Positions 7,854 to 58,044 of a DNA stretch of 64,000 nucleotides are shown in pieces. The stretch spans positions 128,001 to 192,000 of the forward strand of contig OZ244717.1 in NCBI GenBank assembly GCA_965218975.1, given 5' to 3'. Both the position numbers and the translations under genes were made by a program. The notes beneath the pieces were generated by a model. The model ran no database searches, had not been told where the DNA came from, and worked only from the letters and a program-made list of their open reading frames with translations. Position 1 is the stretch's first letter; the number at the start of each line of letters is the position of its first letter. The DNA is from Candidatus Oxydemutatoraceae bacterium (lineage in GTDB: Bacteria > Pseudomonadota > Gammaproteobacteria > Poriferisulfidales > Oxydemutatoraceae).

Positions 7854-8468
7854 TGTACGATGCCACCCTAGTGGGATTCTTGAAGAGCTTCTGGGGAAGC
7901 ATTCGGCAGTAACATTCGGATCGGTGCTTTCTGTCCGTTGCCGGCATGAGGACGGTGCAGGGTGAGACGCGCCCGGAAAACCGAACGGTTTTCAGCGGCG
8001 AACGACCCGACAAGGACGTCGGGGCTGGGGTTTATTCGCAGAACTAAGCTTCGTCATGAACGACAAGTACTTTGCCGGGTTGCGGCCAGATTCGCCGGCG
8101 CCTCTTGCGCGGCGCTTTGTCGCAGTCATACAAGGCACCGAGACCAGTGCGGCGATAACGCCAGCGCCAGCGGTACAAAGTACTGCGACCGACCTTGAAT
8201 GCGCTCGGTGACATCCGATCTGTAGTTTCCCCTGAAACAGCAAGCCGATTACCGATCGGCAGGAAACATCGTGTGTGCATTTAGTCCGTGTTTCTCCCAA
8301 AATGAGGGCATCATATTTCTATTGAGCCGTTGTGTTCATGAGCCTCCATTTTTGAAGCAAAATTGGCTCATATAGAAACCTTTGATGCGGTGGCCGATGT
8401 GCTGATATTGCATATCGGTCACCTTTTTATTGAGGTCCGAGAATCCGGTATGTATCCGGACACGCACA
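7854..8468 (-). mobile_element. Degenerate IS481-like element (non-autonomous, copy A) carrying one hairpin repeat
   Basis: TGT...ACA ends; minus-strand fragments MQYQHIGHRIKGFY, WEKHGL and AFKVGRSTLYRW (transposase HTH); collinear with 57253-58367. Confidence 0.7.
7960..8075 (+). repeat. Multi-hairpin repeat, single copy
   Basis: GGGTGAGACGCGCCCGGAAAACCGAACGGTTTTCAGCGGCGAACGACCCGACAAGGACGTCGGGGCTGG...; matches copies at 21.1-21.8, 25.0-25.85 and 57.3-58.0 kb. Confidence 0.9.
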
Positions 8469-8679
8469 CACGGTAAAACCCCCGGATGCGATAGCCTATA
8501 TATTGGATTTGCAAAGCTGCTCCTCCTGTCGGGTGGAGTGCCAAATGTTTCTGAGCTTATGCACGGTATTCGCCCAAGAAACCATCCGTGAATTCCGGAA
8601 CCGATACAGTGCTGGAGTTGACCAAGCTGGCTCCTCATAATGTAAACTTTATGGCCGACCGTAAATAAATGGAGCGTTT

Positions 8680-11600
8680 ATGGATTTCATCCCGGAAGAA
8701 TTGCTACGAGGCCATGAGGATAGGGAGGTTGTTTTTTTCTGCGGCGTAGGTGTTTCCGTACCTGCAGGTTTACCATCCTTTAAAAAATTGGTTGAAGACA
8801 CACTTGCTGATCTGCTACCACTCAAAGAGCAGTGCGAACCAGGTTCCACAGAAGCACTGGCATGGCAGGCATTTGAGGACAAGAAATACGACGAAGCCTT
8901 GGGCATTCTGGAATCCCCTCAGCACGGTGGCTACGAAGCCAAGGATGTACGTGAAAAGGTACGCCGTCATCTGTCAGAGCCGAGGACTAAAACACTGGAT
9001 AAGCACCTGATTTTGACTCGGCTGGCAGACCTTGACACAGAACACGGACGACTCGTTACCACAAATTTTGACGAATTATTCGAGCGCTCACAGATAAAAT
9101 TGAGAAAGCTCGAACAATCCAGCCACCGAATGGATGTGCATATTGCTCCGACTCTACCACCGGCAAAGCCAGAGACATTTAAAGGATTGGTCTATTTGCA
9201 CGGTAAACTAGGAAGTTCCCCAAACAACCGGCAGCTAGTATTAACTACGGCTAATTTCGGCATGGCTTATATGCTTGAAGGCTGGGCATTGCGGTTCGTG
9301 ACCGAGCTCTTCCGGCACTATCATGTCGTTTTCATCGGATACAGTCTTGAGGACCCTACGATGCGCTATCTGGTAAGCGCATTAGCGGCAGCGCGTGAGG
9401 AACGCTCCCAACAATTCAAGGAACCTTACGTCTTTGCGCCTTACAGCAGTGAAGAAACGGCAGGTTTGGACAAAGTCAAACAACAATGGAAACTTAGAGG
9501 CATAACACCAATTCTTTACGACAAAACCAACAAACACCAGCAACTATGGCAAGCCTTAGAAAAGTGGGCTGACAACTATCGTCAGGGGATTACCGGACGC
9601 CGACAGTTAGTGTCCCATCTCAGTCAGCTTCCGCCTGTTTCAGATGAAAATGACTCTACCATCCGAGATATGGCGTGGGCACTCAAAGACACCAACGTTG
9701 CAAGACATTTCGCAGACCTGACAGGGAAGCGCCGACCTATCCCTGAATGGATTATGCCTCTACAAAAGAAGGGGTTGCTGAGTTTGCCCATAGGCCAAAC
9801 CGATGATGGACAACCCATCTTTGTGCCACTGGTCTCATCTCGACAGCTTGCAGATCTTTTTGACTTGAACGAAGTTACATTCCACTTGGGCCGTTGGATT
9901 GCTAAGTGTCTTGACAGTCAGGTAGTGCTGGACTGGGCACTCACTGAAGGCGCAATCTTGCACTCGGAATTGCATCATCAAATCAGAACCCAGCTAGATG
10001 AAAACACGACTCAGCTTCCTCCGGCACTTCACAAGATCTGGCGAATATTAGCGGATGGAAGTTACGCACATATGCTGTCGGAAAGATACACAAATCGCTC
10101 CTATCGCAATTTTACCCATCCCAGTTTGGGGCCTGATGCAACTTTTGCTTTGCAGATTTTTTTAAACCGCCTTCGACCAATTCCAATATTCAAGGCCAGG
10201 CCAGATTTTCTCTGGCGTAAACAAATTCCGGACCCAAGCCGTCCGAGGAATTGGTGTGAAATTGAAATTGAGTTGATTGGGGTTAACGGTGATTATGAGA
10301 TTCAAAAATTTCGTAACAATGCTGAAGACTGGAGTAGTGCCCTGGCAGTCATTGCAGAGGAACTCACGACACGCCTTCGCGAAGCTATGGGCTGGTTTTG
10401 TGAATTTGGCCTGGCTGGTCCGAACGAAGACATCACCCATATTGAATATAAATCCATCAGCCCACATGAACAGAACAAGCATGCCCATCATGCCCATACC
10501 TGGACACAACTCATTGCACTAGCTAGGGACTCATACGACGCTCTTGTTGCTCAAGAAGATCATGCTGCAGCAACACACCTCGTACAACGCTGGCGATCTC
10601 TCCCCTATCCTGTATTTCGGCGGTTAGCGCTGTACGCAGCTACGAAAAATCCCCGCTTAGACGTAGAGTTTGGACTAGATATTCTTTTAGATAGGCAACA
10701 ACCAGCATTATGGGATATCAATATCATGCGCGAACCGCTGCGTTTCCTAAGAAAGCGCGGTCATCAGTTTCGAGAAGAGCAGCTTACCCAACTGACTGAA
10801 GCCATATTGGAAGGGCCGCCAAGGCAAATGTACCAAGAAGATCTCACGGCAGATGAGTGGAATACAGTTCGTGACTACCAGATCCTTTTGCGTCTTTATA
10901 AACTGAAGGAAGCCGGTGTGTTGTTACCAGTATCTGTGCAGAAAACCTATGACCGCATTCAAAGTAGTCTGTCGTGGCAACCAAAGGGTGATCATTCGGA
11001 GGAGTTTAGTTTTTTTATATCTTCTGACACTGCAGCTCTTGGTCCAATCAATGAAAGTAAGCTTGAAAATTTTGGAGAAATGTCCGATGAGCAATTCATT
11101 CAATGGTCGGAAAAGCAGCAAGACGAAGATATTCTTCTTTGGAAGCGTAGTGGCAGCTGGTCTCAGTTTGTAAAAAACGATACCCAAGCAGCAGTAAGGC
11201 TTCTTAAAGCTGCATCGGACAACAATGTCTGGCCGGCGCGCCCTTGGTACTACGTACTGTATGCGTGCGGACAAGAAGGACAGGAAAATGTTACAGATGC
11301 TTTGAAACAAGTGATTGCCAAACTTTTGGTTGATATGCCTATACAGACATTGGGTAAACTGTATCTTCAAGCTGCGAGATGGTTTGAAGGTGTGTGGCGA
11401 CAACTTGACGAGGCATTGAGACGAAAGCTATGGCGAAGAATATGGGACGCATCAATTGAGGGAGAAGAGCCGCAGCATGATTTGGATTTCAATATGGCCC
11501 ATCACCATGCCGGTGGAATCTTGGGGAATATTCTTTATAACGAATTGACTAAGCGCATTCCAAGCATTGCATCCGGTCAATCTCCTGGGTTCCCAAAACA

Positions 11601-12426: not shown

Positions 12427-12783
12427 AAACCATGCTGCGGCAGGTGGTCTTGACTTCGTAGGTTTTGGCTTTGATTTTGGTTTGGTCGCGGCAAATCTTC
12501 CTGTACGATTCTCCAGACGACCGCAAAATCAATCTCAAAATAGCCATGTACGATGCGATTGCGCAAACTGATGATGTGAGGCCAAGAAATTTCCCGATGT
12601 GCTTTCCTAATATCTTCACTGACACGGGAAGCGCCTTCTCCCACAATTTCCAGCACTTTAAGAATCACATTCCGGTGTAAATCGCTCTGTACAAACTGCG
12701 AGTAAGTAAGTCCTTTTGCAAATGCTATTGCCTGACGCGCAAGCTACCGGCATATCAAGCAGGTAGGCGTCGTCACGCCGCAT
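12330..12783 (-). pseudogene. HEPN (DUF86/HepT-like) toxin, copy 1, frameshifted
   Basis: RNRIVH RX4H motif; extra A at 12741-12742 relative to intact copy 2 shifts the frame; C-terminus replaced after EDLPR. Confidence 0.75.
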
Positions 12784-13084
12784 AGATGACTTCAACGGAA
12801 TCTAGAATCGCCTTCCGGCGAATGTAGTTATGGCTTTGCTCCACGGATGTACGTGTCAGAACATCCACTCGTCTACCGAACAAGTCTGATAACTCAGAGG
12901 CTATACCGACAAACTTCAACCCCGGCGTATGACCTGGCGCAAACTCTACCAGTATGTCAATGTCGCTCTCCGGTCCGAAATCTTTTCTTAATGCTGAACC
13001 AAAGATCGCAAGCTGGGCTATGCCGTTTGCACGACAGAACTCAGCAACGCGGTCCTTTGGAATGTACAAGTCCGGATTCATGCT
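12448..13084. repeat. ~635 bp direct duplication of the MNT-HEPN module (partner at 21831-22466)
   Basis: Near-identical from TCTTGACTTCGTAGG to CCGGATTCATGCT in both places. Confidence 0.93.
12773..13081 (-). CDS. Minimal nucleotidyltransferase (MNT) antitoxin, copy 1
   Basis: IFGSALRKDFGPESDIDILVEF (GSX10DXD); overlaps the HEPN start. Confidence 0.88.
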   Translation of the reverse strand: MNPDLYIPKDRVAEFCRANGIAQLAIFGSALRKDFGPESDIDILVEFAPGHTPGLKFVGIASELSDLFGRRVDVLTRTSVEQSHNYIRRKAILDSVEVIYAA

Positions 13085-13243
13085 TTTGAAACCCCCAACT
13101 CTGGCATTCGGTCCCACGTTTGGTTGCACAATACCTCCCCCTGCCATGTTCAATCTTCATATCTTTCACTTTCATTCATCTGCCCTCCTTCATAGACGCC
13201 CCTGTAGTGCTGCTCTACAGCCTTCAACCTGCGTTTGATCAGA

Positions 13244-19307: not shown

Positions 19308-19550
19308 GGGTAAAAATCAGAGGACAGTTACGTGTTTGACGAAGCAATAAAAGGGGCATACATCTCTTCCGAGCGAAAAGCGTTATTGTATTGGTTTCCG
19401 TAACCTTTGTTTACCTAAATTTCATTTTGCGAGTGATGGCATGAAACACGTCATTATAAATGGCGTGGGAACTTCATCACCCGGGTATTTGGCAGTACGT
19501 CTGATTGATGCCTGCGAGTTAAACAATCAAAGAACAGACAAAAAACCACG

Positions 19551-20988: not shown

Positions 20989-21060
20989 AATGGGTATTCT
21001 AATGCCTGATCCGGGCAATATGCAATGTGTGTATAAGTCCATAACATTTAGCACTCCGGC

Positions 21061-21158
21061 GGCACTTCGGGTGGTGAGTCAAAAGCGATTGTATCGGGGA
21101 CTGCAACCCCAGTGAATGTCAGTGAATAATGGGTGAGCCGCGCCTCGGAAAACCGAAT
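21061..21158 (+). repeat. Left long inverted repeat (partner at 25826-25918)
   Basis: GGCACTTCGGGTGGTGAGTCAAAAGCGATTGTATCGGGGACTGCAACCCCAGTGAATGTCAGTGAATAATGGGTGAGCCGCGCCTCGGAAAACC is the near-exact reverse complement of 25826-25918. Confidence 0.9.
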
Positions 21159-21830
21159 GGGTGAGCCGCGCCCGGAAAACCAATTGGTTTTCAGCGGCGA
21201 ACGACCCGACAAGGGCGTCGGGGCTGGGGTTTATTTGCAGAACCAAGCTTCGTCATGGACGACATGTACTGTGCTAATAATCCGGTACAATCTGCCACCA
21301 AACGCAAAACTGATAAGCCGCGCCCGGAAAACCAATTGGTTTTCAGCGGCGAACGACCCGACAAGGACGTCGGGGCTGGGGTTTATTTGCAGAACCAAGC
21401 TTCGTCATGGACGACATGTACTGTGCTAATAATCCGGTACAATCTGCCACCAAATGCAAAACTGATAAGCCGCGCCCGGAAAACCAATTGGTTTTCAGCG
21501 GCGAACGACCCGACAAGGACGTCGGGGCTGGGGTTTATTTGCAGAACCAAGCTTCGTCATGGACGACATGTACTGTGCTAATAATCCGGTACAATCTGCC
21601 ACCAAACGCAAAACTGATAAGCCGCGCCCGGAAAACCAATTGGTTTTCAGCGGCGAACGACCCGACAAGGACGTCGGGGCTGGGGTTTATTGACAGCACG
21701 AAATGGACGACAAGCTCTGTCAAGGACGACATGTGGCACAATCCGGCACAATCCACCAACAACCCTGCACAATCCGGCACAACCCTGCTACCAAACACAA
21801 AACGGGTGAGCCGCGCCCGGAAAATCGATC
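21159..21830 (+). repeat. Tandem array of the hairpin repeat, 152 bp period (4 cores plus a half copy at 21804)
   Basis: AGCCGCGCCCGG recurs at 21164, 21316, 21468 and 21620; linkers are near-identical. Confidence 0.95.
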
Positions 21831-22165
21831 TCTTGACTTCGTAGGTTTTGGCCTTGATTTTGGTTTGGTCGCGGCAAATCTTCCTGTACGATTCTCCAGA
21901 CGACCGCAAAATCAATCTCAAAATAGCCATGTACGATGCGATTGCGCAAACTGATGATGTGAGGCCAAGAAATTTCCCGATGTGCTTTCCTAATATCTTC
22001 ACTGACACGGGAAGCGCCTTCTCCCACAATTTCCAGCACTTTAAGAATCGCATTCCGGTGTAAATCGCTCTGTACAAACTGCGAGTAAGTAAGTCCTTTT
22101 GCAAATGCTATTGCCTTACGTGCAGCTACCAGCATATCAAGCAGGTAGGCGTCGTCACGCCGCAT
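21788..22165 (-). CDS. HEPN (DUF86/HepT-like) toxin, copy 2
   Basis: MRRDDAYLLDML...IVGEGA...WPHIISLRNRIVHGYF; C-terminal tail runs into the repeat array. Confidence 0.82.
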   Translation of the reverse strand: MRRDDAYLLDMLVAARKAIAFAKGLTYSQFVQSDLHRNAILKVLEIVGEGASRVSEDIRKAHREISWPHIISLRNRIVHGYFEIDFAVVWRIVQEDLPRPNQNQGQNLRSQEIDFPGAAHPFCVW

Positions 22166-22463
22166 AGATGACTTCAACGGAATCTAGAATCGCCTTCCGG
22201 CGAATGTAGTTATGGCTTTGCTCCACTGACGTACGTGTCAGAACATCCACTCGTCTACCGAACAAGTCTGATAACTCAGAGGCTATACTGACAAACTTCA
22301 ACCCCGGCGTATGACCTGGCGCAAACTCTACCAGTATGTCAACGTCGCTCTCCGGTCCGAAATCTTTTCTTAATGCTGAACCAAAGATCGCGAGCTGGAC
22401 TATGCCGTTTGCACGACAGAACTCAGCAACGCGGTCCTTTGGAATGTACAAACCCGGATTCAT
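22155..22463 (-). CDS. MNT antitoxin, copy 2
   Basis: IFGSALRKDFGPESDVDILVEF; near-identical to copy 1. Confidence 0.88.
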   Translation of the reverse strand: MNPGLYIPKDRVAEFCRANGIVQLAIFGSALRKDFGPESDVDILVEFAPGHTPGLKFVSIASELSDLFGRRVDVLTRTSVEQSHNYIRRKAILDSVEVIYAA

Positions 22464-22466
22464 GCT

Positions 22467-22636
22467 AATGAGGGCATCGTGTTTCTGTTGAATCTTAGAG
22501 CGTTCATGAGCCTCCATTCTTGAAGCTAAATTGGCTCATATAGAAATCTTTGATGCGGTGGCCGATGTGCTGATATTGCATGTCGGTCACCTTTTTAAAT
22601 CGTGCCGTGAGTCCCATATGTATCTGGCACCATACA
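22467..22636 (-). mobile_element. IS481-like left-end fragment
   Basis: Homologous to the ends of the elements at 8302-8468 and 58200-58367 (MQYQHIGHRIK start; ...TATGTATCTGGCACCATACA end). Confidence 0.75.
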
Positions 22637-23006
22637 ATATTTGTATGACCGCCACAGCTGCACACTAGTGTTGTTGAATGACGGCCCGACAAGGGTAATC
22701 AAGGATGGTCAGGGATAGTCTAAGCGGGGGGATGGTTCAATGCCCAGTACGATGTTCGCGTGAAATGCCGCAATAACTACAGGCATTTGTTTGAACTATG
22801 CAAGTTTTTGAGATCACCAATGTTATTGATCAACTCAGAGGTAGAACAGTGGATCGCGCCTGCGCTATTCCTTGCTTGGGACCGGCACATTCTAAATGGT
22901 GGCCTAGATGACAAAATGTCCTTGATGGATCTTATAACCTCAGAAGAATTTTACAAACTACTCGGAGTGACACAGGAATTCGTAACTATGCGGGCAAACC
23001 GACTAG

Positions 23007-24501: not shown

Positions 24502-25046
24502 AACGCCAATACAAAAACCATCCATCGCACCGATGCGACCCTTCATCCGAAAGGTATTCAAGGGCACAGCACGCAACCTGCAGGTACACACTATCTGTCC
24601 AGACGTGCCAGGCATCCGGAGCTCTTTATTGTCCATACGATCCGCAACAGACCGCCACAGGCTGGAATCCACCAGCCAGGCGCAACCGGCGCTGCAATGT
24701 GCGACGCGGCAAGGAAACTTTTAGTGCATTTTTTATCTCTTCTACGGCCCCCCCTCAGGAAACTTCGCAACAATTTGTAGTACGGAATCAAGTTCAATTT
24801 GAGAAACTTTTTTTGGCATGGTTTTTCTGGCGCGATTAGTCTATTGCGCCACAATAATAATACTTATTTGGCGCATTTCAGTATTCGCGCCATTTTAAGT
24901 GGCATGAAAAACTCAATTTTTATATTTATCACTGAAAAAACCCAAAATACTCTAAAAAAAATTTAAATAAGCTCAGAAACACTTGGAATCGTTTTGTGTT
25001 TGTACCGGATGTTCGGCGGATTGTGCCGGATTGTGCCGGGCTGTTA

Positions 25047-25849
25047 GCAAAGTACTTGTCGTCCATGACGAAGCTTAGTCCTGCGAATAAACCCCAGCCC
25101 CGACGTCCTTGTCGGGTCGTTCGCCGCTGAAACCCGTTCGGTTTTCCGAGCGCGCCTCACCCATGACGCGACTTGGTTCTGTCAATAAGCCCCAGCCTCG
25201 ACATCCTTGTCGGGTCGTTCGCCGCTGAAACCCGTTCGGTTTTCCGAGCGCGCCTCACCCATGACGCGACTTGGTTCTGTCAATAAGCCCCAGCCTCGAC
25301 ATCCTTGTCGGGTCGTTCGCCGCTGAAACCCGTTCGGTTTTCCGAGCGCGCCTCACCCATGACGCGACTTGGTTCTGTCAATAAGCCCCAGCCTCGACAT
25401 CCTTGTCGGGTCGTTCGCCGCTGAAACCCGTTCGGTTTTCCGAGCGCGCCTCACCCATGACGCGACTTGGTTCTGTCAATAAGCCCCAGCCTCGACATCC
25501 TTGTCGGGTCGTTCGCCGCTGAAACCCGTTCGGTTTTCCGAGCGCGCCTCACCCATGACGCGACTTGGTTCTGTCAATAAGCCCCAGCCTCGACATCCTT
25601 GTCGGGTCGTTCGCCGCTGAAAACCGTTCGGTTTTCCGGGGCGCGGCTCACCCGTTTTGTGTTTGGTGGCAGATTATTAGCAAAGTGCTTGGTGCAGGTT
25701 TGTCGGCAAAGTACTTGGTGCAGGTTTGTCGGCAAAGTACTTGTCGTCCATGACGAGACTTCGTGCTGTCAATGAGCCCCAGCCCCAACGTCCATGTCGG
25801 GTCGTTCGCCGCTGAAAACCGATCGGTTTTCCGAGGCGCGGCTCACCCA
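25047..25849 (-). repeat. Inverted tandem array of the hairpin repeat, 98 bp period (6 tandem cores plus 1 separate)
   Basis: ATGACGCG recurs at 25163, 25261, 25359, 25457 and 25555; further cores at 25047-25162 and 25732-25849. Confidence 0.95.
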
Positions 25850-25918
25850 TTATTCACTGGCATTCACTGGGGTTGCAATCCCCGATACAATCGCTCTTGA
25901 CTCACCACTCGGAGTGCC
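25826..25918 (-). repeat. Right long inverted repeat
   Basis: Reverse complement of 21061-21154. Confidence 0.9.
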
Positions 25919-25931
25919 AAATATTATAGAC

Positions 25932-28900
25932 CTATCTATACAATAGCTTTCGTTTATTTAAAAAATATGGCTTGATAATTGCCCACTCTGATTGATAATA
26001 ATTGCTGCCGATACTTTTGCCTTTGGCCATAAAACTCTGAAAGACCAATCGTTTGATATCGTCATGTATCTTCAATGGCAAAACCCGGTATCGAATTTTT
26101 TCGAAATTGCTGTTATATATAACTTTCCATCCTTGCAAATGAAGCTGTTCTCTAGCTGATATGTTTTGAGTTAGATGGGCTTTAAATTTCTTACGCCCGT
26201 TCTCGTTGAAGCAAATCCCGATAATTTCTTCTGACTCTATCAGTTTCAGACAGGATAATTTCTCTTTTGTACTCAGCCCATTCTTATATTCCTTTTCTAC
26301 CTTCTTTGAAAGTAACCATTTGATGCGCACTTTGTTTATATGTCCTGAATCGTAGCACTGTAATAAATAACCGTCCTGGTATTTTGATGTTATTTTAATC
26401 GTATAATCCGCATCTGATCGTTTATTATCAGTCGTCAAAATATAGGTGCCTGATTTGTACAGATTAAAATATCTAAGCGCCCCCGCCTCATCGGAACTAA
26501 TGTTGGTATTTTCATGTTCGGAATGATTAAATTCATCCTCGCGATTGGAATTGGCATTTTCATGGACTATCTCCTCCGCGGGAGAGAATGTCTCCGGACT
26601 TCCCGCATTCCCATCTTCTTGAGCAGAAGATGACTGATCCAAAGCTGTATCCGAGTCTTCTAATCGGGAAATCATTTTCCAAAGAGGTTCCAATGTTTTA
26701 ACTCTATTCGCGTAGTATTCGAAACCTCTAACACGGAAAAATTGCCAGCCATGCCTTTCGAGCTCATTTTGACGACCTATGTCGTGTTGACGTTGTTCAA
26801 GGCCATGCCATTTGTCACCATCGCATTCGATGGCTATTTTTACCCCGTTGGGAAGCGAAGAAACTAAGTCAATGCGATATTTTCCGCTAGCAACTTTATA
26901 TTGAGGGGTAACTATTAAATTTCCTCTGACTAGATCATTATAAACCTCAACCTCAAACCAACTACCAAACGGCTTTGGCGCTTTACCTTTTTTCTTCTCT
27001 ATCGGAATACAGATTGGTTGTTGCGGCGATTTATAGTTTTTGAAGTGGTCTAGTAATTTATACCTCAAGTCTTCCTTGTTGGTTAAGTCATCTAATTGCA
27101 CCGAATGGAATAACCAGATTTGCTCTTCTGCTCTGCTGACTGCAACATTAAACCGTCTTTCATGACTTGTTTTTACAAGCGATGACCGCCTATGGTTATG
27201 TGCGGTCACTAAACTCAAGAAAATGATATCTCTTTCATCCCCTTGAAATGCAGCAGCATTGCCGCAAACTATTTTTCGCTTATGAAATTCCTCTGGCCCG
27301 ATTCGGTTTAAGAGCAAATTTTCAATGCATCTTGATTGTTGACTGCCTTGTAGTGTAATGACACCAAATGTTTTACCGTCATAACTTTCATCATGCACTA
27401 ATCTTTCGATAGTTTCGGCGATTTCTTCAGCTTCAGGCTCATTGGTGATGCTTGCTTCTTTGCCCTCCGTGTAACCCTTGTTACAAAAAATCGAAACTAA
27501 TGGTTTAAGTCTTTTTTCCGAATATTGCTTGACCGGATAAAGTGATTTTCCGTTAGGGGCATAAAAATGCTTGTTACAGAACTCTATAATCTCCGGCATA
27601 CACCGGAAATGTTCTCGCAATACTGTGGTAACCCCACTGCAAAGTATTTCCGCAATGTCGAAAAAACTATAATCCGTTTCGAAAGAGCCTGAATATGGTA
27701 TTCCTTGCAAATGTTTGTTGATAAGTGATGTTACAGAACCTTCACCCACGCCAATATATTCAGGTGATGTTTGTTTGTCGTCTCCGGCGATGATGACCTT
27801 TTTTGATATATATAAGAGAAATATCGCATCCGGCCCCAGCTGACTTGCTTCGTCAACAATGACGTAGTCGTACATTTCCGGTTTCGGTTGAACAGTTTCT
27901 GCTACCTTATATAAAGGCATAATCCAGCATGGAATGGAATCTTTACAATCCTCCATGTATTTTTGGGCCGTTCTACGATTTTTCATCGCTTTTTTGCCTC
28001 TACTCGTCTTTCCGATTTTACTTACAGCTTTTGCCCAAGCCGTCAAACTACGACTTAACTCAGGGTTTTGCTTTAATCTCTCGACCACTTTAAACCACGC
28101 CTTCTTAGCCGCAAGCTTGGCAATGCTCTCTTTTTCCTCATTTTCCAATTCTTTTATATCATCCCACAATTGTTTATCATCAACATCTGTGCGCTTTTCT
28201 ATTTCATTTTTCGCATGTCTGAACAATATTGCTTGTTCTAATCCGGGAAGATCTTGTTTAGAGAAATTACCCGATCGGATGGAAGATAAAATTTTGGGAC
28301 AAACTTCTCCAATATTTTCTTTTAGATTCACAAAGTCCTGATATCGGTTTTTATCATCCGTTAGTTTCTTTGCAGTTGTCAGGGCCTCATCGTATGAGCT
28401 GTGATCAATTCGCTTGAATGCATTCAAGATGCCTTTCTTTATCGGGTGAAAATTACCATGATTTAAGTATTCTTCTGCTTTTGCGATGACTTTCCTATAT
28501 TTCGCCACCGAATGAATCAATTCGTAGTACTTGCGCCTATCTGATAATAATTTCTCCTCCGGGACCTCTACATTCCAGATCTTCGCAAGCTCCTCAAGGT
28601 CAAGTCGGATGTCAAAATCTCTTAAAGCAATTTGAAATTCTTCTTTAGTATCGCACGGGCTCCCGTTAACCTTACACTCATCAATAAAATAAAGGCGTTC
28701 TTTGATTTCTCTGGGAAGAAAAGCCTTCAGATTGAAAAAAGGACCCGGTAATTCATGCCCCTCTTCTAAATATTTAAGTAAAGTTTCAGCGTCTTGCTTA
28801 AGCTGCCTAAGACTTTTATCTGGTAAAGCAACCTCAATGTCTCTATCAAGTTCTCTTAAATCATGCTTTTTGATTCTCTCGAGCGCCGACTCGGACTGCT

Positions 28901-38540: not shown

Positions 38541-38763
38541 CCCGACATGGAGATTGCCAGCCTAAACCGATATGCACTCGGCGCATACCATACTACTCCA
38601 AACATAACTATACGCAACACGATAATCTTGCTCATCAAACAGATCATGTTTAAGCGTTCTGTGCATCCGGAATCAACCCCCTTTGCCCGCCTGGTCAAAG
38701 CAAAAACACTACGATAGAGATTTCTTTCTCTTTTAGAAAAAAAGTCCGGCGGGCTCAAGTGCG

Positions 38764-39729: not shown

Positions 39730-39779
39730 AGCGTACGCCGGGTCGCATCAAGTCCGCCGCGCTTTTATGCACTGCGCGG

Positions 39780-40712
39780 TCAATGTCTGCCATGTTTACG
39801 CTTCTTTCTTTGTTTGCACCACTTCATAATCCGCCGCTTCAATCTTCGCCGAATATTTATGCCGCCGCCTTGCCAAAACCTTAGCAACCATAGATCATAA
39901 CCGGTTGGCTCTCTGCCGAGGTAGACTCGTAACGGTGAAACAATCGTAGTATATTTCTTCGTATACTTCTTCGGAATCGCTCTCGCCAAGTCGTCAAAAT
40001 CAAAAAAATGTTTCACCGCAGGTACTCGAATATGCCAACGTTTAGCTCGTTCGGCTTTATCGTTATCAAGTAAACACAGCGACGCAAGTTTGATATCAGG
40101 CAAGCTTTCGGTTTCTTGCGGAACGCTGACGAGAAAATTATTGTCACTCGGGTCACCGTGGCGAAGACCGAGAATATGAAGCTGTTTGATAAAAGCAAAC
40201 TTTTTGCAATACAATTGATTGATATATTGATATTGATCATCTTGAGCGGCTCGCCTCCTGATCTCCTCAATTGTCTCACCGTTTTGATATTCGTATAAAA
40301 AATAATTGTCTGTTATAAACCATTTTTTCCAGCCATGCCGAAAAGTCCAATATGCCAAAGGGCGCAGCGCTGAAATTCCCTCATCGTACAACAGGCAAGA
40401 GGCGGTAAATGCCCTGCGCGCAAGTCTCCCTAACAAACAAAGATACCATATCTCAATCCTCCCACGTAAACGGAAACGAGGATTAACTATGTTTCTTTTC
40501 ATTACCAACTTAGCCGGATGATACGGAAGAAAAAAAACATACAAGGCACGGCTATACAGGAACGAAATATTAAATTGGTCTTGCTCAAATTCGCGAAATT
40601 CTCCCCGCTTGATCCATTCAATCAGTTTATTCTTTTCTTGCAAGCCGGAAACGACCGTATATGTTCCGGACGAATATTTACCGCGCAGTAACGGACGCAC
40701 ACTAGCATTCAT
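39780..40712 (-). CDS. Kdo/WaaP-like kinase paralog 2
   Basis: RPLAY, LHILGLRHGDPSDNNFLV, LLDND. Confidence 0.75.
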   Translation of the reverse strand: MNASVRPLLRGKYSSGTYTVVSGLQEKNKLIEWIKRGEFREFEQDQFNISFLYSRALYVFFLPYHPAKLVMKRNIVNPRFRLRGRIEIWYLCLLGRLARRAFTASCLLYDEGISALRPLAYWTFRHGWKKWFITDNYFLYEYQNGETIEEIRRRAAQDDQYQYINQLYCKKFAFIKQLHILGLRHGDPSDNNFLVSVPQETESLPDIKLASLCLLDNDKAERAKRWHIRVPAVKHFFDFDDLARAIPKKYTKKYTTIVSPLRVYLGREPTGYDLWLLRFWQGGGINIRRRLKRRIMKWCKQRKKRKHGRH

Positions 40713-40766
40713 AGCGCACGCCGGGGCGCATTGAAAAAGTCCGACGTGCTTTGATGCACTACGCGG

Positions 40767-41713
40767 CTAATCTCCGCCATGTTTGCGCTTTTTTCTTTGT
40801 TTGTAATACTTCCTAATCTTCCCCCTTAATATTCGCTGAATAGGTATGCCGCGGCTTTGCCAGAATTTCAGTAACCATAGGTCATAACGGGTCGGTTCCC
40901 TACTGAGATAGACTCGCAACAGTGAAACAGCCTTGTCATACCCTGTAACAAATCCTTTTGTTAAGTCTTTGAAATCGAAAAAATATTTCACTGCAGGTAC
41001 TAGAATGTGCCAATATTTGACCCGTTTGGCATAATCGTTATCAATTAAATACATTGATGCAATGTTTATATCAGGAAAACATCCGGTTTGTTGCGGATCG
41101 CTGATGATAAAATTGCCGGTTTTCTGGTCACCGTGGCGGAGACCGGCAAGATGGACCAGTTTAATAAAAGAAAAAATTTTGCAATGCCATTGGTGGATAT
41201 CTTCTTTTCTTCCGTGTTGATTCAATCGCCTTATGAGGCTCTTCAATGTCTCGCCGTGCTGGTATTCGTATAAAAAATAATTGCCTGTTCTAAACCGTTT
41301 TTCCCAGCCATGCCGAAAAAGTCCAATATGCCAAAGGGCGCGGCGTTGAAATTCCCTCATCGTACAACAGGCAAGAGGAGAAAAATACTTTGCGGGCAGG
41401 TTTCCCTGACAAATGGTCATACCATGATCTAATCCTCCTAGGCCTAAACCTCCTAAGAAAATTGGAACTAGGATTAAGCATTTTTCTTTTCATTACCAAC
41501 TTGGTCGGATACGATGGCAGAAAAAAAGCATAAACAATACCATAAGGACGACGTTGTCGTTGTGAAATAATAAATTGGTCTCGCTCAAAATTCCGAAATT
41601 CTCCTCGCTTGATCCATTCAATCAGTTTATCCTTTTCTTGCACGTCGGAAACGATCGTATATGTTCCGGACGAATATTTGCCGCGCAAGTAACGGACGCA
41701 CACTAGCATTCAT
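40767..41713 (-). pseudogene. Kdo/WaaP-like kinase paralog 3, two +1 frameshifts
   Basis: HGDQKTGN, LIDND; extra bases near 41687 and in A5 at 41316-41320 relative to paralog 2. Confidence 0.72.
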
Positions 41714-41768
41714 AGCGCACGCCGGGTCGCCATTGAAAAAGTCCGACGTGCTTTGATGCACTACGCAG

Positions 41769-42701
41769 CTAATCCCTGCCATGTTTGCGCTTCTTTCTTT
41801 GTTTGCACCACTTCATAATCCTCTTCATAATCCTCCGCCTTAATCTTCGCCGAATACGTGTGCCGCCTTGCCAAAATCTCAACAACCATCGGTCATATCC
41901 GGTTGGTTCCCTACCGAGGTAGACTCGTAACGGCGGATCTATAGCATATCTCGACGGAACCGCTTTTGCTAAATCAAGAAAATCAAAAAAATGTTTCACT
42001 GCAGGTACCCGAATATACACACGCCCGAAGCTATCGTTATCAAGTAAACACAGCGACGCAAGTTTCATATCAGGCAAATCTTCGGTTTCTTGCGGAGCGC
42101 TGACGAGAAAATTACCCGCATACGCATTACCGTGACGAAGACCGGCAATATGAAGCTGTTTGATAAAAGTGGCCATTTTGCAATGTAATTGATCAATATA
42201 TTGATATTGGCCATCCCCCCTGATGGCTTGTCCCCTGATGTCCACAATTGCCTCACCGTTCTGATATTCGTATAAAAAATAATTGTCTGTTATAAACCAT
42301 TTCTTCCAGCCATGCCGGAAAGTCCAATATGCCAAAGGGCGCGGCGTTGAAATTCTCGCATCGTGCAACAGGCAAGAGCCGACAAATGCCCTGCGTGCAT
42401 ATATCCCCAGCAAACAACGAAACCATACTTGAATCCTCCTAAGCAAAAGAGAACGAGGATTAACTGTGGCTTTTTTCATTACCAGCTTAGTCGGATGATA
42501 CGGAAGAAAAAAAGCATAAATGGTATTACGAGAACTATACAGGAACGAAATCTTAAATTGGTCTTGCTCAAAATTCCGAAATTCTCCCCGCTGAATCCAT
42601 TCGATTAGTTCATCCTTTCCCTGCAAACCGGAAACAACCGTATATGTTCCGGACGAATACTTGCCGCGCAGTAACGGACGTACACTAGCATTCATGTTCA
42701 T
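41769..42701 (-). CDS. Kdo/WaaP-like kinase paralog 4 (HGN instead of HGD)
   Basis: LRHGNAYAGNFLV, LLDND; ATGA overlap with the cysQ stop. Confidence 0.75.
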   Translation of the reverse strand: MNMNASVRPLLRGKYSSGTYTVVSGLQGKDELIEWIQRGEFRNFEQDQFKISFLYSSRNTIYAFFLPYHPTKLVMKKATVNPRSLLLRRIQVWFRCLLGIYARRAFVGSCLLHDARISTPRPLAYWTFRHGWKKWFITDNYFLYEYQNGEAIVDIRGQAIRGDGQYQYIDQLHCKMATFIKQLHIAGLRHGNAYAGNFLVSAPQETEDLPDMKLASLCLLDNDSFGRVYIRVPAVKHFFDFLDLAKAVPSRYAIDPPLRVYLGREPTGYDRWLLRFWQGGTRIRRRLRRRIMKRIMKWCKQRKKRKHGRD

Positions 42702-43519
42702 AGCGTACGCCGGGTCGCATCGAAATGAATACGCGCCTTGGCGGAAGGCGCAAATGCGACAAACGGGGGATTAATTAAGGAATCTTTCATATTATAACGA
42801 AAAGGGTTACCCGACCAATCAGTGAGTCGCCCTCCCGCCTCTTCAAGCACACATTGTCCGGCGGCAGTGTCCCATTCGTAAGTGTTGCCTAACCGCGGAT
42901 AAATATCCGCCTCCGCTGCAGCGATCAAACAGCACTTGATCATGCTCCCGCGACGTAGCAGTTTATGCGGCCCCAAACTCCTTAAGAAATCTTTTATCTT
43001 ATTTCTGGCATGGGAGAAACTTACCGCTACGACCGGCTCGGCGATTGGGAGTTGCCGCGCTTCAAGTGAAGTCACTTGATCGTTGATAAAACGATATGCG
43101 CCATTACCCATAGATGCCGCATAGCAACTTTCTTCGGTAGGAACATAAACCGCACCGAGGATGGCATGATGTCGATAAATCAATGCAATATTTACAGTAA
43201 AGTCATCGCGCTGATTAATAAATTCTTTGGTGCCATCCAGAGGGTCAACTAGCCAATAAGCTTCCCATCCCCTACGTTCAGAAAAAGGAATCTCCGAATT
43301 TTCCTCGGATAAAACCGGCAAATTCGGTTGTAATGCAGCGAGTTCCTCGGTAATAATCGTATGCGCAACTTTATCGGCTGCCGTTACCGGCGATCCGTCC
43401 TGTTTGTAATCAACAGAAAAATTATCAGCGTAAATTTCCCGGATGCTTCTCGCTGCGGATGCGCCGATCCTGCGCACTTCAACAAGCAACGATTCCAGAT
43501 CAAAGGGAGAAGGTGTCAT
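42698..43519 (-). CDS. cysQ: 3'(2'),5'-bisphosphate nucleotidase
   Basis: SPVTAAD, LSEE, WLVDPLDGTKEFI, YPRLG..EWDTAAG. Confidence 0.94.
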   Translation of the reverse strand: MTPSPFDLESLLVEVRRIGASAARSIREIYADNFSVDYKQDGSPVTAADKVAHTIITEELAALQPNLPVLSEENSEIPFSERRGWEAYWLVDPLDGTKEFINQRDDFTVNIALIYRHHAILGAVYVPTEESCYAASMGNGAYRFINDQVTSLEARQLPIAEPVVAVSFSHARNKIKDFLRSLGPHKLLRRGSMIKCCLIAAAEADIYPRLGNTYEWDTAAGQCVLEEAGGRLTDWSGNPFRYNMKDSLINPPFVAFAPSAKARIHFDATRRTL

Positions 43520-47100: not shown

Positions 47101-50086
<2,986 letters not shown>

Positions 50087-50095
50087 ACGGTTCGT

Positions 50096-51853
50096 TTAGT
50101 AATCGCCGTGTACAATTTCGACTTGCGGCATTCCCCAACAAACATGCCCCATATCTTGCGCCATTTGCCCTAATCCTTCCGTTTCAATATAGTGGCGATA
50201 AGGGTGCGGCGGAAAAATTAATCCTTTGCGATGAATATCAGCATTTACCAAAAGCATCGTACCGCCTACACCGTCCAACTCAACATAATCCGTATCGGGA
50301 AAATGTTTTAGATAATAACGTCCGTAACCGACCGGCGGTTGCAAAATACCGTCAATCAGATATCGTTCCCAATCAAGCGTATCCGCATCTTCACGTAACT
50401 TAAAAGTATTCAAATCAAAAGTATCGCCATTCTCTCCGACACAATGCGGCACAACAATATCTTTACCGGACTGTAAGAGGTGAAGAAATGTATCCTCATG
50501 CCAACTGAGAAGGTCCGCATCAACCCATAATACCCACGCCTCATCGCGCAATGTCCTGCTTAATAATACGTTGCGGCTTTGTGCCAAAATCGACCGCCGC
50601 CGGAACTGTTGGCCGACGGCCCAACGTTGCCCTCGCATACGATAAGCAAAATCTTGTTTATGCAACTCAACGCGCGCATATTTCTTACGCAATTCAGGCA
50701 ATAACTCTTTGAGCAAATCGTAAGAACCGTCATCGCTGTCACTCTCAAGCAAACCGATGGAAATTTTTTTCTCGGGATAATCCGTGCCGGCAAGATTCTG
50801 GAAAAACCTTGGAATGTGCGACATGGCATTTTTAACCGGCGTCAAAATCAATAAATCCGGATAGGCATCGGGACGCTTGACTACAGGCAAAGGTTTCGAA
50901 GTATCCTCATGCATCGCTTTGGTTTCCGCCTTTGTAGCCAAATCAATACCATATTCCGCCGACAAATCACGCAACTTTACCGCATATTGATCGCCGCAAT
51001 AACGATACGAGTGTTGCCGGATAATCTTCTTATAATGTCCGACCCCCCAAGTGTTTTGCCCATGAAAAACGTAAATATAGGCATCCGGTCGGTCACATAA
51101 TGCCGTTCTCGCAGTGCGTACAATTGCATTACACACCACCGTATCCTCGCCTTTTTTCATCGGCGCATAATCGGGAACCAACCGCTTCTCGCAAACCATT
51201 GTGCCCTCTGCCATGCAATAGCCGGAAATATCTAAACGATGCCGCTCAGGAGACCACAAAAGCTGACGATGCAAAAAGCAGACTTCAACTTCCAATGCCC
51301 GAATGACGCCCATTTGCAATGATAATCTGTCGGGGTGGCTCAGATCGTCATCGTCCCATTGCGCAATGTATTCTCCGCTCGCATGGTCTAACGATACATT
51401 GCGCAAGTGGCCTAGCGAATAATTTTTATTCGGTAAACGAATATGCACAATCGATGCATCCGACAAAGAATCCGTCCATTGCTTTAACCGATCGTCAGAA
51501 TCATAATCAATAATAATCAGTTCTTTACTCGGATAACTTTGTCTGCGAAAGCATTCAATTGATTTCTGCGCCAGCGAGAACCGCTTGCGTGTTATCATCA
51601 GGCAAGAAATTTTAGGATGAGACGACTGTTGTAAAATATCGTAAGCAACCGGCAAATCAACCGCAGCATGCGATACACACCGTCCGTGCACTAAACAGCT
51701 TGTCCAAACCTGCGATGCGGATAAAGGAGGCAGGACAAGCGGTGAAGGAATCTTAAAACTCCACCGAAAACCTTTTTCAGGATGAAGTAAGAAATAAAAG
51801 CGCCGTGCCCAACATCCGGACCAATTCCGAATCTGTCGCTCTAGACTATTCAT
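50096..51853 (-). CDS. GT2 + Anp1/Mnn9 (GT62-like) glycosyltransferase fusion, copy 1
   Basis: GT2: ISCLMIT..QSY..ELIIID..AQWDDDD; Anp1-like: LILTPVKNA..SRN.LL..WVLWVDAD..FDLN..LDGVGG..FP..IETEGL..MA..MG. Confidence 0.8.
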   Translation of the reverse strand: MNSLERQIRNWSGCWARRFYFLLHPEKGFRWSFKIPSPLVLPPLSASQVWTSCLVHGRCVSHAAVDLPVAYDILQQSSHPKISCLMITRKRFSLAQKSIECFRRQSYPSKELIIIDYDSDDRLKQWTDSLSDASIVHIRLPNKNYSLGHLRNVSLDHASGEYIAQWDDDDLSHPDRLSLQMGVIRALEVEVCFLHRQLLWSPERHRLDISGYCMAEGTMVCEKRLVPDYAPMKKGEDTVVCNAIVRTARTALCDRPDAYIYVFHGQNTWGVGHYKKIIRQHSYRYCGDQYAVKLRDLSAEYGIDLATKAETKAMHEDTSKPLPVVKRPDAYPDLLILTPVKNAMSHIPRFFQNLAGTDYPEKKISIGLLESDSDDGSYDLLKELLPELRKKYARVELHKQDFAYRMRGQRWAVGQQFRRRSILAQSRNVLLSRTLRDEAWVLWVDADLLSWHEDTFLHLLQSGKDIVVPHCVGENGDTFDLNTFKLREDADTLDWERYLIDGILQPPVGYGRYYLKHFPDTDYVELDGVGGTMLLVNADIHRKGLIFPPHPYRHYIETEGLGQMAQDMGHVCWGMPQVEIVHGDY

Positions 51854-52292
51854 TTCTTATACCCCGCAACAAGTACATAAACCGAAGCGGATATTTTCAT
51901 CCGAGCAGCAAAATCCAATCTGTCTGCAGGTTAAAACAAATCACAAGGCTGACCGGGATTCTGCGTCAACGTAAAAACATCCGGCTCTATTTGAACATGG
52001 ATCAAATGTATCGCCAAGTTGGCTTTCACGGAAGATAACCGATTGGCATAGTCTGTTCCCCGGAAACATTCCGGATACCGGCAGGATCAAGAGGCTTTTA
52101 CACATTTGATTAGAATGAATATAAGGCGTTACACCACTCCCGCCATTGTGGAAACGCCTTGGCTTTCAACTCCGATAAGCAATCTTGTCTTGGCCTTTTG
52201 GCATAGCTATTGCCCATAGCAAGGCGTCTAATAAGTCTCAGAAAAATCGCTCATCCGCTTATCAATCTGCCCATTGTGCGACTTACTATTGC

Positions 52293-54062
52293 TTAGTAAT
52301 CGCCGTGTACAATTTCGACTTGCGGCATTCCCCAACAAACATGCCCCATATCTTGCGCCATTTGCCCTAATCCTTCCGTTTCAATATAGTGGCGATAAGG
52401 GTGCGGCGGAAAAATTAATCCTTTGCGATGAATATCAGCATTTACCAAAAGCATCGTACCGCCTACACCGTCCAACTCAACATAATCCGTATCGGGAAAA
52501 TGTTTTAGATAATAACGTCCGTAACCGACCGGCGGTTGCAAAATACCGTCAATCAGATATCGTTCCCAATCAAGCGTATCCGCATCTTCACGTAACTTAA
52601 AAGTATTCAAATCAAAAGTATCGCCATTCTCTCCGACACAATGCGGCACAACAATATCTTTACCGGACTGTAAGAGGTGAAGAAATGTATCCTCATGCCA
52701 ACTGAGAAGGTCCGCATCAACCCATAATACCCACGCCTCATCGCGCAATGTCCTGCTTAATAATACGTTGCGGCTTTGTGCCAAAATCGACCGCCGCCGG
52801 AACTGTTGGCCGACGGCCCAACGTTGCCCTCGCATACGATAAGCAAAATCTTGTTTATGCAACTCAACGCGCGCATATTTCTTACGCAATTCAGGCAATA
52901 ACTCTTTGAGCAAATCGTAAGAACCGTCATCGCTGTCACTCTCAAGCAAACCGATGGAAATTTTTTTCTCGGGATAATCCGTGCCGGCAAGATTCTGGAA
53001 AAACCTTGGAATGTGCGGCATGGCATTTTTAACCGGCGTCAAAATCAATAAATCCGGATAGGCATCGGGACGCTTGACTACAGGCAAAGGTTTCGAAGTA
53101 TCCTCATGCATCGCTTTGGTTTCCGCCTTTGTAGCCAAATCAATACCATATTCCGCCGACAAATCACGCAACTTTACCGCATATTGATCACCGCAATAAC
53201 GATACGAGTGTTGCCGGATAATCTTCTTATAATGTCCGACTCCCCAAGTGTTTTGCCCATGAAAAACGTAAATATAGGCATCCGGTCGGTCACATAATGC
53301 CGTTCTCGCAGTGCGTACAATCGTATCGCACACCGCCGTATCCTCGCCTTTTTTCATCGGCGCATAATCGGGAACCAACCGCTTCTCGCAAACCATTGTG
53401 TTCTCTGCCATACAATAGCCGGAAATATCTAAACAATGCCGTTCGGGAAACCACAAAAGCTGACGATGCAAAAAGCAGACTTCAACTTCCAATGCCCGAA
53501 TGACGCCCATTTGCAATGATAATCTGTCGGGGTGGCTCAGATCGTCATCGTCCCATTGCGCAATGTATTCTCCGCTCGCATGGTCTAACGATACATTGCG
53601 CAAGTGGCCTAGCGAATGATTTTTATTCGGTAAACGAATATGCACAATCGATGCATCCGACAAAGAATCCGTCCATTGCTTTAACTGATCATCAGAATCA
53701 TCGTCAATAATAATCAGTTCTTTACTCGAATAACTTTGTCTGCGAAAGCATTCAATTGATTTCTGCACCAGCGAGAACCTCTTGCGCGTTATCATCAGGC
53801 AGGAAATTTTGGGATGAGACGACTGTCGCAAAATATCGTAAGCAACCGGCAAATCAACCGCAGCATGCGATACACACCGTCCGTGCACTAAGCAACTTGT
53901 CCAAACCTGCGGCGCGGGTAAGGGGCGCGGGGCAAGCGGTGAAGGAATCTTAAAACTCCAATAGCGTAAATATTGCCAGCTTTCTCCGGGACGAAGTAAA
54001 ATATAAAAGCGCCGTCCCCAACGCTTAATCCAATTCCGGGTACATTGTTTTAATTTACTCAT
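52293..54062 (-). CDS. GT2 + Anp1/Mnn9 glycosyltransferase fusion, copy 2
   Basis: Near-identical to copy 1 at an offset of 2197 bp. Confidence 0.8.
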   Translation of the reverse strand: MSKLKQCTRNWIKRWGRRFYILLRPGESWQYLRYWSFKIPSPLAPRPLPAPQVWTSCLVHGRCVSHAAVDLPVAYDILRQSSHPKISCLMITRKRFSLVQKSIECFRRQSYSSKELIIIDDDSDDQLKQWTDSLSDASIVHIRLPNKNHSLGHLRNVSLDHASGEYIAQWDDDDLSHPDRLSLQMGVIRALEVEVCFLHRQLLWFPERHCLDISGYCMAENTMVCEKRLVPDYAPMKKGEDTAVCDTIVRTARTALCDRPDAYIYVFHGQNTWGVGHYKKIIRQHSYRYCGDQYAVKLRDLSAEYGIDLATKAETKAMHEDTSKPLPVVKRPDAYPDLLILTPVKNAMPHIPRFFQNLAGTDYPEKKISIGLLESDSDDGSYDLLKELLPELRKKYARVELHKQDFAYRMRGQRWAVGQQFRRRSILAQSRNVLLSRTLRDEAWVLWVDADLLSWHEDTFLHLLQSGKDIVVPHCVGENGDTFDLNTFKLREDADTLDWERYLIDGILQPPVGYGRYYLKHFPDTDYVELDGVGGTMLLVNADIHRKGLIFPPHPYRHYIETEGLGQMAQDMGHVCWGMPQVEIVHGDY

Positions 54063-54774: not shown

Positions 54775-54782
54775 GATTTAGT

Positions 54783-57191: not shown

Positions 57192-57359
57192 ACAGGCAAA
57201 AAGTTGTATAAACAGTTAGTATAATACCAATTACTATTCATATCCGTATGACTGTACGATGTTACCCTAAATGGGATTCTTGAAGGGCTTCGGAGGAAGC
57301 GTTCGGCAGTAACATTCGGATCGGCGCTTTCTGTCCGTTGCCGGCATGAGGACGGTGCA

Positions 57360-57582
57360 GGGTGAGATGCGCCCGGAAAACCGATCGGTTTTCAGCGGCG
57401 AACGACCCGACAAGGACGTCGGGGCTGGCGCTCATTGACAGAACCCAGTCTCGTCATGGACGAGCAGGGTGAGACGCGCCCGGAAAACCGATCGGTTTTC
57501 AGCGGCGAACGACCCGACAAGGACGTCGGGGCTGGCGTTCATTGACAGAACCAAGTCTCGTCATGGACGACAGACACTTTGC
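57360..57582 (+). repeat. Hairpin repeat dimer (107 bp period)
   Basis: GGGTGAG at 57360 and 57467. Confidence 0.92.
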
Positions 57583-57820
57583 TGAGCATTCACCAACAAA
57601 CTACAAAACGGCTTCATAACCGGTCATTGAATGCTTCCGTATCGGCGAATAGCAGGTTTTCTGCATGATCGATACAATCTTCTTGAACGGTGCGGTTGAA
57701 GCGCTCGATGTGCGCGTTCATTTTTGGACACTTGGGATAGGTCAGCCACTGCTCAATCGCGGGTGATTCCCGGATGAGCCGGGCAAACCTGTCCTTGAAA
57801 CTCACTACCACCATCTGTCA

Positions 57821-58044
57821 GGGTGAGACGCGCTCGGAAAACCGATCGGTTTTCAGCGGCGAACGACCCGACAAGGACCGTCAGGGCTGGCGCTTATTCG
57901 CAGAACCAAGTCTCGTCACGGACGAGCAGGGTGAGACGCGCCCGGAAAACCGAACGGTTTTCAGCGGCGAACGACCCGACAAGGATGTCGGGGCTGACGC
58001 TCATTGACAGAACCAAGTCTCGTCATGGACGACAGGCACTTTGC
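57821..58044 (+). repeat. Hairpin repeat dimer (108 bp period)
   Basis: GGGTGAG at 57821 and 57929. Confidence 0.92.

Follow-up and report, generated by a model that had tools for sequence, protein, structure and literature searches.

A TwoAYGGAY-like family of structured repeats with CsrA-type loops, carried within IS481 relics of a Candidatus Oxydemutatoraceae genome

The closest described relative of the element analysed here is the TwoAYGGAY RNA motif (RF01731; described in PMC2864571), for which binding of CsrA has been proposed (PMC4333381). In the accessible portion of a recent preprint (bioRxiv 10.64898/2026.09.22.753630), TwoAYGGAY repeats are reported in up to 202 copies in Pseudomonas, arranged as divergent doublets, and an extended form in Pseudomonadota carries three extra hairpins, a long basal stem as well as a 3' pseudoknot, with lineage variants. 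How repeats of this type multiply is stated there as open, and the main text, as far as it was available, mentions no IS481, tRNA or GG targeting. We examined a window of 64,000 nucleotides (positions 128001-192000) from the genome of a Candidatus Oxydemutatoraceae bacterium (2.08 Mb in a single contig, 99.4% complete; hereafter the host genome), in which an earlier note made from the letters alone had pointed out a multi-hairpin repeat. This repeat, whose unit we call the core, represents an uncatalogued sister family of TwoAYGGAY. We consider it probable that the family consists of structured, CsrA-type elements that spread by a polar reaction at GG and that, in the host genome, the element travels as a passenger of the insertion sequence (IS) family IS481.

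Like TwoAYGGAY, the element has two successive hairpins with GGA-containing loops (ANGGAN, broader than AYGGAY), and the two share a multi-copy, strain-variable nature and an unexplained mobility. The element's first hairpin is nearly identical to the Rfam consensus of RF01731. However, the element adds a 5' helix with tandem G.A pairs, has no covarying basal stem, and forms tandem arrays and some convergent doublets, whereas TwoAYGGAY forms mainly divergent ones. Among the 150 of 291 host-genome candidates that were scored, the highest RF01731 score was 21.1 bits against a gathering cut-off of 43 bits, and no hit reached E<=10. Pairs of the RF01731 basal stem, which encloses both hairpins, did not appear among the top 20 pairs ranked by mutual information with average product correction (MI-APC) within the model, and the flanks are unrelated across genomes. 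Both types co-occur as separate elements in one genome (G033), and the element could be one of the lineage variants of the preprint. The core matches no Rfam family, consistent with its earlier description as unrecognised, and a search of the open-access literature returned no description of the family, nor did the available part of PMC9788540. Group II intron domain V, the hammerhead and integron attC were rejected as candidates for want of Rfam support, and antisense Rfam matches to anti-hemB, Hrs13 and Ysr224 fell below cut-off and were not used. At one locus (L045, 1535-1634) the Yersinia small RNA Ysr224 matches, again below cut-off, antisense to a TwoAYGGAY-like element, and judged by this match Ysr224 may be the reverse strand of a TwoAYGGAY-type repeat. 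The R200 repeat has 47 copies in SBW25 (PMC2718517, as far as accessible), close to the 48 TwoAYGGAY matches given in the preprint (10.64898/2026.09.22.753630). Our guess is that R200 is TwoAYGGAY. In the doublets of another genome (G132), other short repeats lie upstream (L134, L137-L141), reminiscent of the short flanking repeats of TwoAYGGAY.

Other known repeats resemble the element in part. Repetitive extragenic palindromic (REP) sequences, bacterial interspersed mosaic elements, REPINs with their REP-associated tyrosine transposases (RAYTs), and IS91-type one-ended transposition likewise involve chromosomal, non-autonomous hairpin DNA in arrays or doublets with one fixed end; in contrast to REPs, the element has no GTAG-tagged palindrome and no linked HUH enzyme, and it has GG junctions and an RNA-type multi-helix fold. 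The tRNA-linked repeats (TLR) of Escherichia coli lie in tRNA operons with 18-19 bp of the mature tRNA 3' end, and three rRNA-operon members bind CsrA in vitro, the tRNA-operon members having scored low (PMC8144298, in its available parts). TLR duplicates only 3' ends, whereas the element duplicates mostly the first 17 nt of a tRNA in sense orientation or the last 14 nt in antisense, and one family member used as a blastn query found no match in E. coli genomes. The sponge RNAs CsrB, RsmY and RsmZ likewise carry short ANGGA hairpins (PMC7366521, accessible part); unlike them, the element has two sites per unit, is dispersed and mobile, and is a candidate sponge.

Fold, covariation and CsrA-type loops

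The unit spans ~105-117 nt and begins with a 5' GG, which is followed by a two-pair helix, tandem G.A pairs and a five-pair helix that closes a variable domain; the 3' part comprises hairpin P2, a GCYGG that does not vary, a linker that does, and hairpin P3. The variable domain that caps the five-pair helix is hairpin 1 of the earlier note, which overlooked the covarying 5' helix with its tandem G.A pairs. In an unfitted 23-row alignment, 11 of 16 pairs showed compensatory changes, a result matched by none of 500 shuffles, and the top 11 MI-APC pairs over 57 rows were all predicted pairs. Across 88 distinct rows, which are related and were aligned by fitting to the model, 15 of 16 pairs covaried and 95% of cells were paired (0/500 shuffles; 32-40% paired in slid controls). 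Taken together, three helices covary strongly, and this holds over many copies, so the absence of covariation that the earlier note had allowed for was not observed.

Two details of the earlier fold changed. The third hairpin, given as TCGTC-ATG-GACGA, is exact in 8 of the 16 window copies; the register that covaries is GTC-ATGGAC-GAC with a six-base loop, whereas the triloop register was no better than shuffles (302/500). The hairpin-1 centres GAAC, GATC and AATT occur as described, and the centre is palindromic in 218 of 269 ungapped cores (133 GATC and 85 AATT). These two centres are haplotypes one compensatory pair apart, and hairpin 1 is the variable part of the family; the proposed selection on its symmetry is not supported.

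Both hairpin loops keep the CsrA site form CANGGANG, that is C-ANGGAN-G, with five-base CAGGANG variants. CsrA sites are short hairpins that expose ANGGA (PMC7366521, in the part available). Hairpins of the C-ANGGAN-G type number 463 in the host genome, 425 of them inside cores. With ANGGA in short hairpin loops and csrA present in the host genome, the element has the features of a putative sponge RNA, and RNA of the ANGGA strand is most likely a ligand of the CsrA dimer, as predicted from these features.

Relatives, junctions and the IS481 carrier

A search with a 23-letter pattern recovered 7 metagenome and 15 genome stretches in which the whole architecture is kept, with record titles naming Pseudohongiella, Pseudomonadales, Xanthomonadaceae and other Gammaproteobacteria. 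A covariance model (R1) was run on 149 further genomes of the class, sampled one per family, and detected the element in 31, a lower bound with 24 candidates per genome scored. Five carriers hold at least 143, 43, 109, 32 and 150 copies. BLASTN of the core against relatives, a check named in the earlier note, gave no match in 30 of them, and the model recovered the element in 2 of 52 genomes of an order-level sample. In a phylum sample, model R2 detected it in 7 of 150 genomes including the host, with four strong cases in the same class and two marginal ones outside it. Plasmids and phages gave no match for the window core, and a homologue as query gave one partial match on a 509-kb Xanthomonas record; viral stretches numbered 0 and 1. 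The family is thus widespread, chromosomal and nearly absent from plasmids and phages. The element also recurs in a tRNA-Ser/tRNA-Arg cluster (L084, L090, L104, L145, L161, L169), which follows csrA in several of these genomes.

The junctions of these homologues have a fixed 5' end and a variable 3' tail. Among the best hits of the 29 readable class carriers (of 31), a tRNA gene lay within 70 nt of the 3' end in 17 and within 330 nt in 20. Direct repeats of at least 14 nt ended exactly at the 5' boundary in 36/77 and 27/69 elements (null 3/300), and the downstream repeat copy continued with GG in 35/36 and 26/27. Outside the window, 54 of 152 elements had a tRNA within 70 nt, 41 in sense and 13 convergent, covering 13 amino-acid types. 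For single tRNA-adjacent elements, the tRNA end was duplicated upstream in 26 of 39, all 26 cut at GG, and 13 had no duplication; the cut lies mostly after nt 17 in the D-loop for sense copies and 14 nt from the CCA end for antisense copies. Further targets are terminators, a REP-like palindrome and a cold-shock-like gene, and at one tRNA-Met locus a tRNA-Phe fragment had been carried in. In 14 of 71 testable cases, one of them a tandem artefact, the element provides the final codon and stop of a long frame, with Rho and a ribonucleotide reductase among these frames. These observations bear out the view that the element is a hot spot for junctions. Separately, where the element entered the cold-shock-like gene (L163, 77-439; family named by eye), the restored start departs from the orphan start in the manner of a paralogue, and the gene appears to hold a second in-frame insert.

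Within the host genome we counted 187 non-tandem 5' junctions in 30 classes, some of them misregistered; an empty continuation is known for 28 classes, and in 15 of these it proceeds with GG. One clean insertion of 141 nt consists of the core and a tail that ends in letters of the donor transposase; it lies reversed inside another IS481, with only AGGG shared, and is filled at genome positions 326543, 1216700 and 1751526 and empty at 237041 and 559619. A core-free native copy of the primary site lies at genome position 211212; relative to it, core and tail have replaced ~17 nt. The 98-, 107- and 152-bp array periods would result from the polar GG reaction as well, the GG used lying in the P3 loop or in the tail.

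The host genome carries ~312 core anchors at 98 loci, 49 per strand, spread over 30 of 33 bins of 64 kb, and only 4 of the 98 loci lie less than 400 nt from a tRNA. An IS end or transposase piece accompanies 92 of the 98, and five of the remaining six show IS pieces by eye. Translation of the DNA between and around cores revealed pieces of a DDE transposase on the opposite strand, with IS481 as the best family (NF033577, E 6e-21 for a 181-aa piece); intact relatives are 312-315 aa long and ~47% identical, and the fragments score below the curated full-length cut-off of the IS481 family. A 5-bp target duplication was found for 5 of 43 two-ended elements, with none at 4 or 6 bp. No intact transposase is left in the host genome, where the longest frame under a match has 246 codons and is partly core sequence. 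The carrier thus shares TGT...ACA ends, the 5-bp duplication and DDE transposase homology with IS481 and its non-autonomous derivatives. In contrast, the core has one fixed end, a variable tail and a duplication of 0 to >20 nt, which does not match an IS end or a miniature inverted-repeat transposable element. The core is a passenger in the IS481 coding region and not a part of the IS, because divergent copies occur in other genomes of the class; there are core-free IS copies and IS-free homologues.

This distribution alters the earlier picture of a repeat confined to mobile and defence DNA: the mobile part stands, as IS481 relics, and the defence part does not, given cores chromosome-wide. 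Two of the four window loci lie in the defence island, which encodes a Dsr1-like sirtuin, a type ISP restriction enzyme and helicases. The others lie upstream of rpmE (7960) and between mrcA and aroK (57360-58044), and all four window loci, not only the one at 57 kb, sit in IS481 relics. Since cores occur throughout the genome and travel with IS481, a role in rearranging the defence island is unsupported, and their occurrence there is incidental.

Routes of spread

In the polar GG reaction that we favour, a unit running from its own 5' GG to a GG ~30-60 nt past the last hairpin would be copied or cut out and then attached to another GG; the junction pattern of this DNA reaction is observed, and we infer a circle or strand-transfer step and an enzyme. 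Local events would give tandem arrays and adjacent deletions, and the captured 3' flank would restore tRNA ends, so that insertions into tRNA genes could survive. In the host genome, one copy would have entered an IS481 transposase gene and been spread by IS481 transposition in trans, and the same GG-anchored events would have broken IS copies and built the arrays. The element RNA would act as a small CsrA sponge, co-transcribed with tRNAs or placed at gene 3' ends. The earlier description as a non-autonomous structured element agrees with these results, and of its guesses, a small RNA unit and a recombination site fit best, probably both, whereas a REP/PATE (palindrome-associated transposable element) substrate of an HUH enzyme is not supported. 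Only tentatively do we propose the bolder version, namely a mobile RNA/DNA element present across the class, without genes but with a GG-specific insertion reaction of its own. An unrecognised enzyme of the chromosome, or the machinery of the host, would drive this reaction under guidance by the captured 3' flank, and the element would home into tRNA genes and gene ends, rebuild them and in this way distribute CsrA sponges.

The earlier note saw no cognate enzyme in the window, and this was confirmed beyond it: the 97 open reading frames (of 143 listed) beside homologous elements were housekeeping genes and two DDE integrase frames, with no reverse transcriptase (RT), HUH enzyme or recombinase. 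The host genome has no match to Y1_Tnp, IS110 or RVT_1, and none to Y2_Tnp, for which the control was silent too. DUF559 occurs only as domains of two large host proteins and in 0/4 other carriers, and GIY-YIG only in a UvrC-sized frame of the host genome; an IS110-type bridge or seek RNA lacks its DEDD recombinase there. These searches bear on two rivals. A REP/REPIN-like single-stranded DNA (ssDNA) substrate, moved in trans by an HUH transposase (RAYT/TnpA or IS91-type) with the loops as enzyme sites, which was the main idea of the earlier note, would account for one fixed and one variable end, flank capture, arrays, the convergent doublets of G132, the near absence from plasmids and phages and the lack of G-U bias in the helices, and Y1_Tnp is present in 25 of 35 carriers (carriers alone counted). 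However, Y1_Tnp is absent from four of the highest-copy carriers as well as the host (and from 4/5 other carriers first tested, against the earlier REP/PATE proposal with a RAYT); no repeat-flanked Y1 transposase of the REPIN-RAYT kind was found, and none is among the 97 frames scanned beside elements; the cuts fall at GG, not at the CT that RAYTs cut, and the hexa- and pentaloop GGA variants fit CsrA sites. We regard this route as rather unlikely. Quite unlikely, in our estimate, is RNA-based retroposition, in which a template-jumping RT would join mature tRNA ends to element RNA, copy to the 5' GG and re-anneal at a nearby GG, as a bacterial counterpart of short interspersed elements. The duplications do stop at the termini of mature tRNAs or close to them (5/6 convergent cases have 0 extra nt, and 14/20 sense single cases at most 2), and the targets are abundant RNAs such as tRNAs and the cold-shock gene, but the sharp ends follow equally well if homology extends no further than the mature tRNA, and at one tRNA-Thr without encoded CCA (L112) genomic letters were duplicated. 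Moreover, RVT_1 is present in only 10/34 carriers and in none of the five copy-counted ones, neither a linked RT nor one in the host genome was found, and GG junctions abound in the host genome without RVT_1.

A third rival dispenses with dedicated mobility: a vertically kept cis-regulatory 3' UTR or tRNA-leader RNA whose hairpins stall replication, with slippage at GG microhomology and hitch-hiking on IS481 making all copies. It is favoured by copies at gene ends that look orthologous between distant genomes, by a GCAGG microhomology common to many junctions, by neutral-looking variation in the host genome and by the missing enzyme, yet slippage does not yield a single fixed end that recurs at dozens of unrelated sites, entry into 13 tRNA types in either orientation, a clean reversed insertion into another IS, or 100+ dispersed copies in carriers with no IS link in the loci read. 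This explanation, too, appears unlikely. Several observations weigh against the polar GG reaction and the CsrA assignment. No mobilising enzyme was found, 13 of the 54 copies next to a tRNA run antisense to it, and 13 of the 28 host junction classes are not continued by GG. The clean insertion traces to a single event that left three descendants, the primary site lost its ~17 nt and is no clean insertion, and the loci were chosen as best model hits, some from close relatives. The link to csrA, which is present in 32/32 carriers while the element occurs in 0/20 csrA-less genomes (p 0.008, the comparison including G072, an unpublished element-negative genome), is weak, with p overstated by kinship and csrA in 130 of 150 genomes. 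G-U and A-C counts are 27 and 23 with no strand bias, and because of this lack of bias the helices could act in ssDNA. Finally, rare variants in the host-genome loops run at 1.0-1.6%, compared with 1.7% in the IS arm, which suggests that most host copies may be neutral.

On the bolder version, CsrA sponge dose would shift with copy number (~425 sites in the host genome), and, if the RNA binds CsrA, a selfish repeat would be wired into a global regulator, holding nine tenths of the ideal sites in a 2-Mb genome. In the sister family the junctions are known exactly, targets follow a rule (GG; position 18 of the tRNA or, on the other strand, the T-arm) and a filled site can be paired with its empty counterpart, which makes the mechanism testable. 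The passenger would wreck its IS host, with little consequence for the defence island itself.

Copies in the window and neighbouring genes

The relics and cores of the window are as follows.

7854..8468, + strand: non-autonomous IS481-type relic, subtype A ends TGT...ACA, with one core (from ends and copy depth); remnants of transposase on the minus strand; lies upstream of rpmE
7960..8064, + strand: single core (model match 99.9 bits)
21030..22636, + strand: composite IS481 relic (from ends and gene calls), running from a subtype B end (C-terminal end of the transposase) through the core array and an MntA-like nucleotidyltransferase cargo gene to a subtype A far end
21132..21158, + strand: 5' core fragment, joined to a full core at a GG
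21159..21721, + strand: four cores of period 152 (core and 3' tail; model matches), at 21159-21263, 21311-21415, 21463-21567 and 21615-21721
21804..21828, + strand: 5' core fragment
24967..25942, - strand: IS481 subtype B relic with both inverted ends and seven cores
25058..25848, - strand: the seven cores (model matches), the outer ones at 25743-25848 and 25058-25162
25557-25653, 25459-25554, 25361-25456, 25263-25358 and 25165-25260, - strand: 98-bp units, cut inside the second ANGGAN loop
57253..58367, + strand: IS481 relic of subtype A that keeps both ends, in the gap between mrcA and aroK (independent contigs end at the relic ends)
57360..57571, + strand: two cores of period 107 (57360-57464, 57467-57571; model matches)
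57613..57820, - strand, approximate limits: IS481 integrase core fragment between the core pairs (translation; rve_3 match at genome 185659-185757)
57821..58033, + strand: two cores of period 108 (57821-57926, 57929-58033; model matches)
58051..58312, - strand, approximate limits: broken N-terminal part of the IS481 transposase (translation)

Sixteen matches to the hairpin-1 pattern lie where the earlier note placed them, with 0.01 expected and 16 reached in 0/100 shuffles, and the covariance model returned the same 16 cores, grouped 1+4+7+4. The two half copies proved to be 5' core fragments (~21132-21158 and 21804-21828); the periods 152, 98 and 107 were recovered, as was 108 (57821/57929), and the single stem mismatch is present in five 98-bp units. 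The sequence AAGTACTT, said to follow the core often, follows only 3 of 16. In short-read contigs of public runs, the element has a very high summed depth compared with 104-158 in unique flanks, figures that are no copy number, and the contigs also hold a tandem-type joint, which together indicate that the repeat is no invention of assembly; the two best runs may come from the source sample itself, and array lengths come from the assembly alone. The 21-kb and 25-kb arrays sit in the second IS481 subtype, and their flanks, once considered an ISL3-like end, are the end of this second IS481. Simple repeats of 10 bp lie within the core 3' tail at 21735-21790 and 24990-25050.

The IS relic region at 57192-58426 fills the gap between the divergent mrcA and aroK, where pilMNOPQ is usually located in Gammaproteobacteria. 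The host genome has a single weak PilM-family match, which suggests that the pilus operon may have been lost. The defence island (8680-30813) contains a Dsr1-like SIR2 protein, DUF4238, a type ISP restriction-modification enzyme and HNH, together with a helicase-nuclease that seems to occupy two overlapping frames (25932-29054 and 28963-30813). Near-identical MntA-like nucleotidyltransferase modules lie at 12448-13084 and 21831-22695, the second being the cargo of the composite IS481 relic. Elsewhere in the window, a 4.2-kb block of mostly unannotated open reading frames behind tRNA-Phe (38667-42824) has about five further genome copies, and a tandem, near-identical pair of glycosyltransferase genes with GT2/Anp1 domains occupies 50096-54062.

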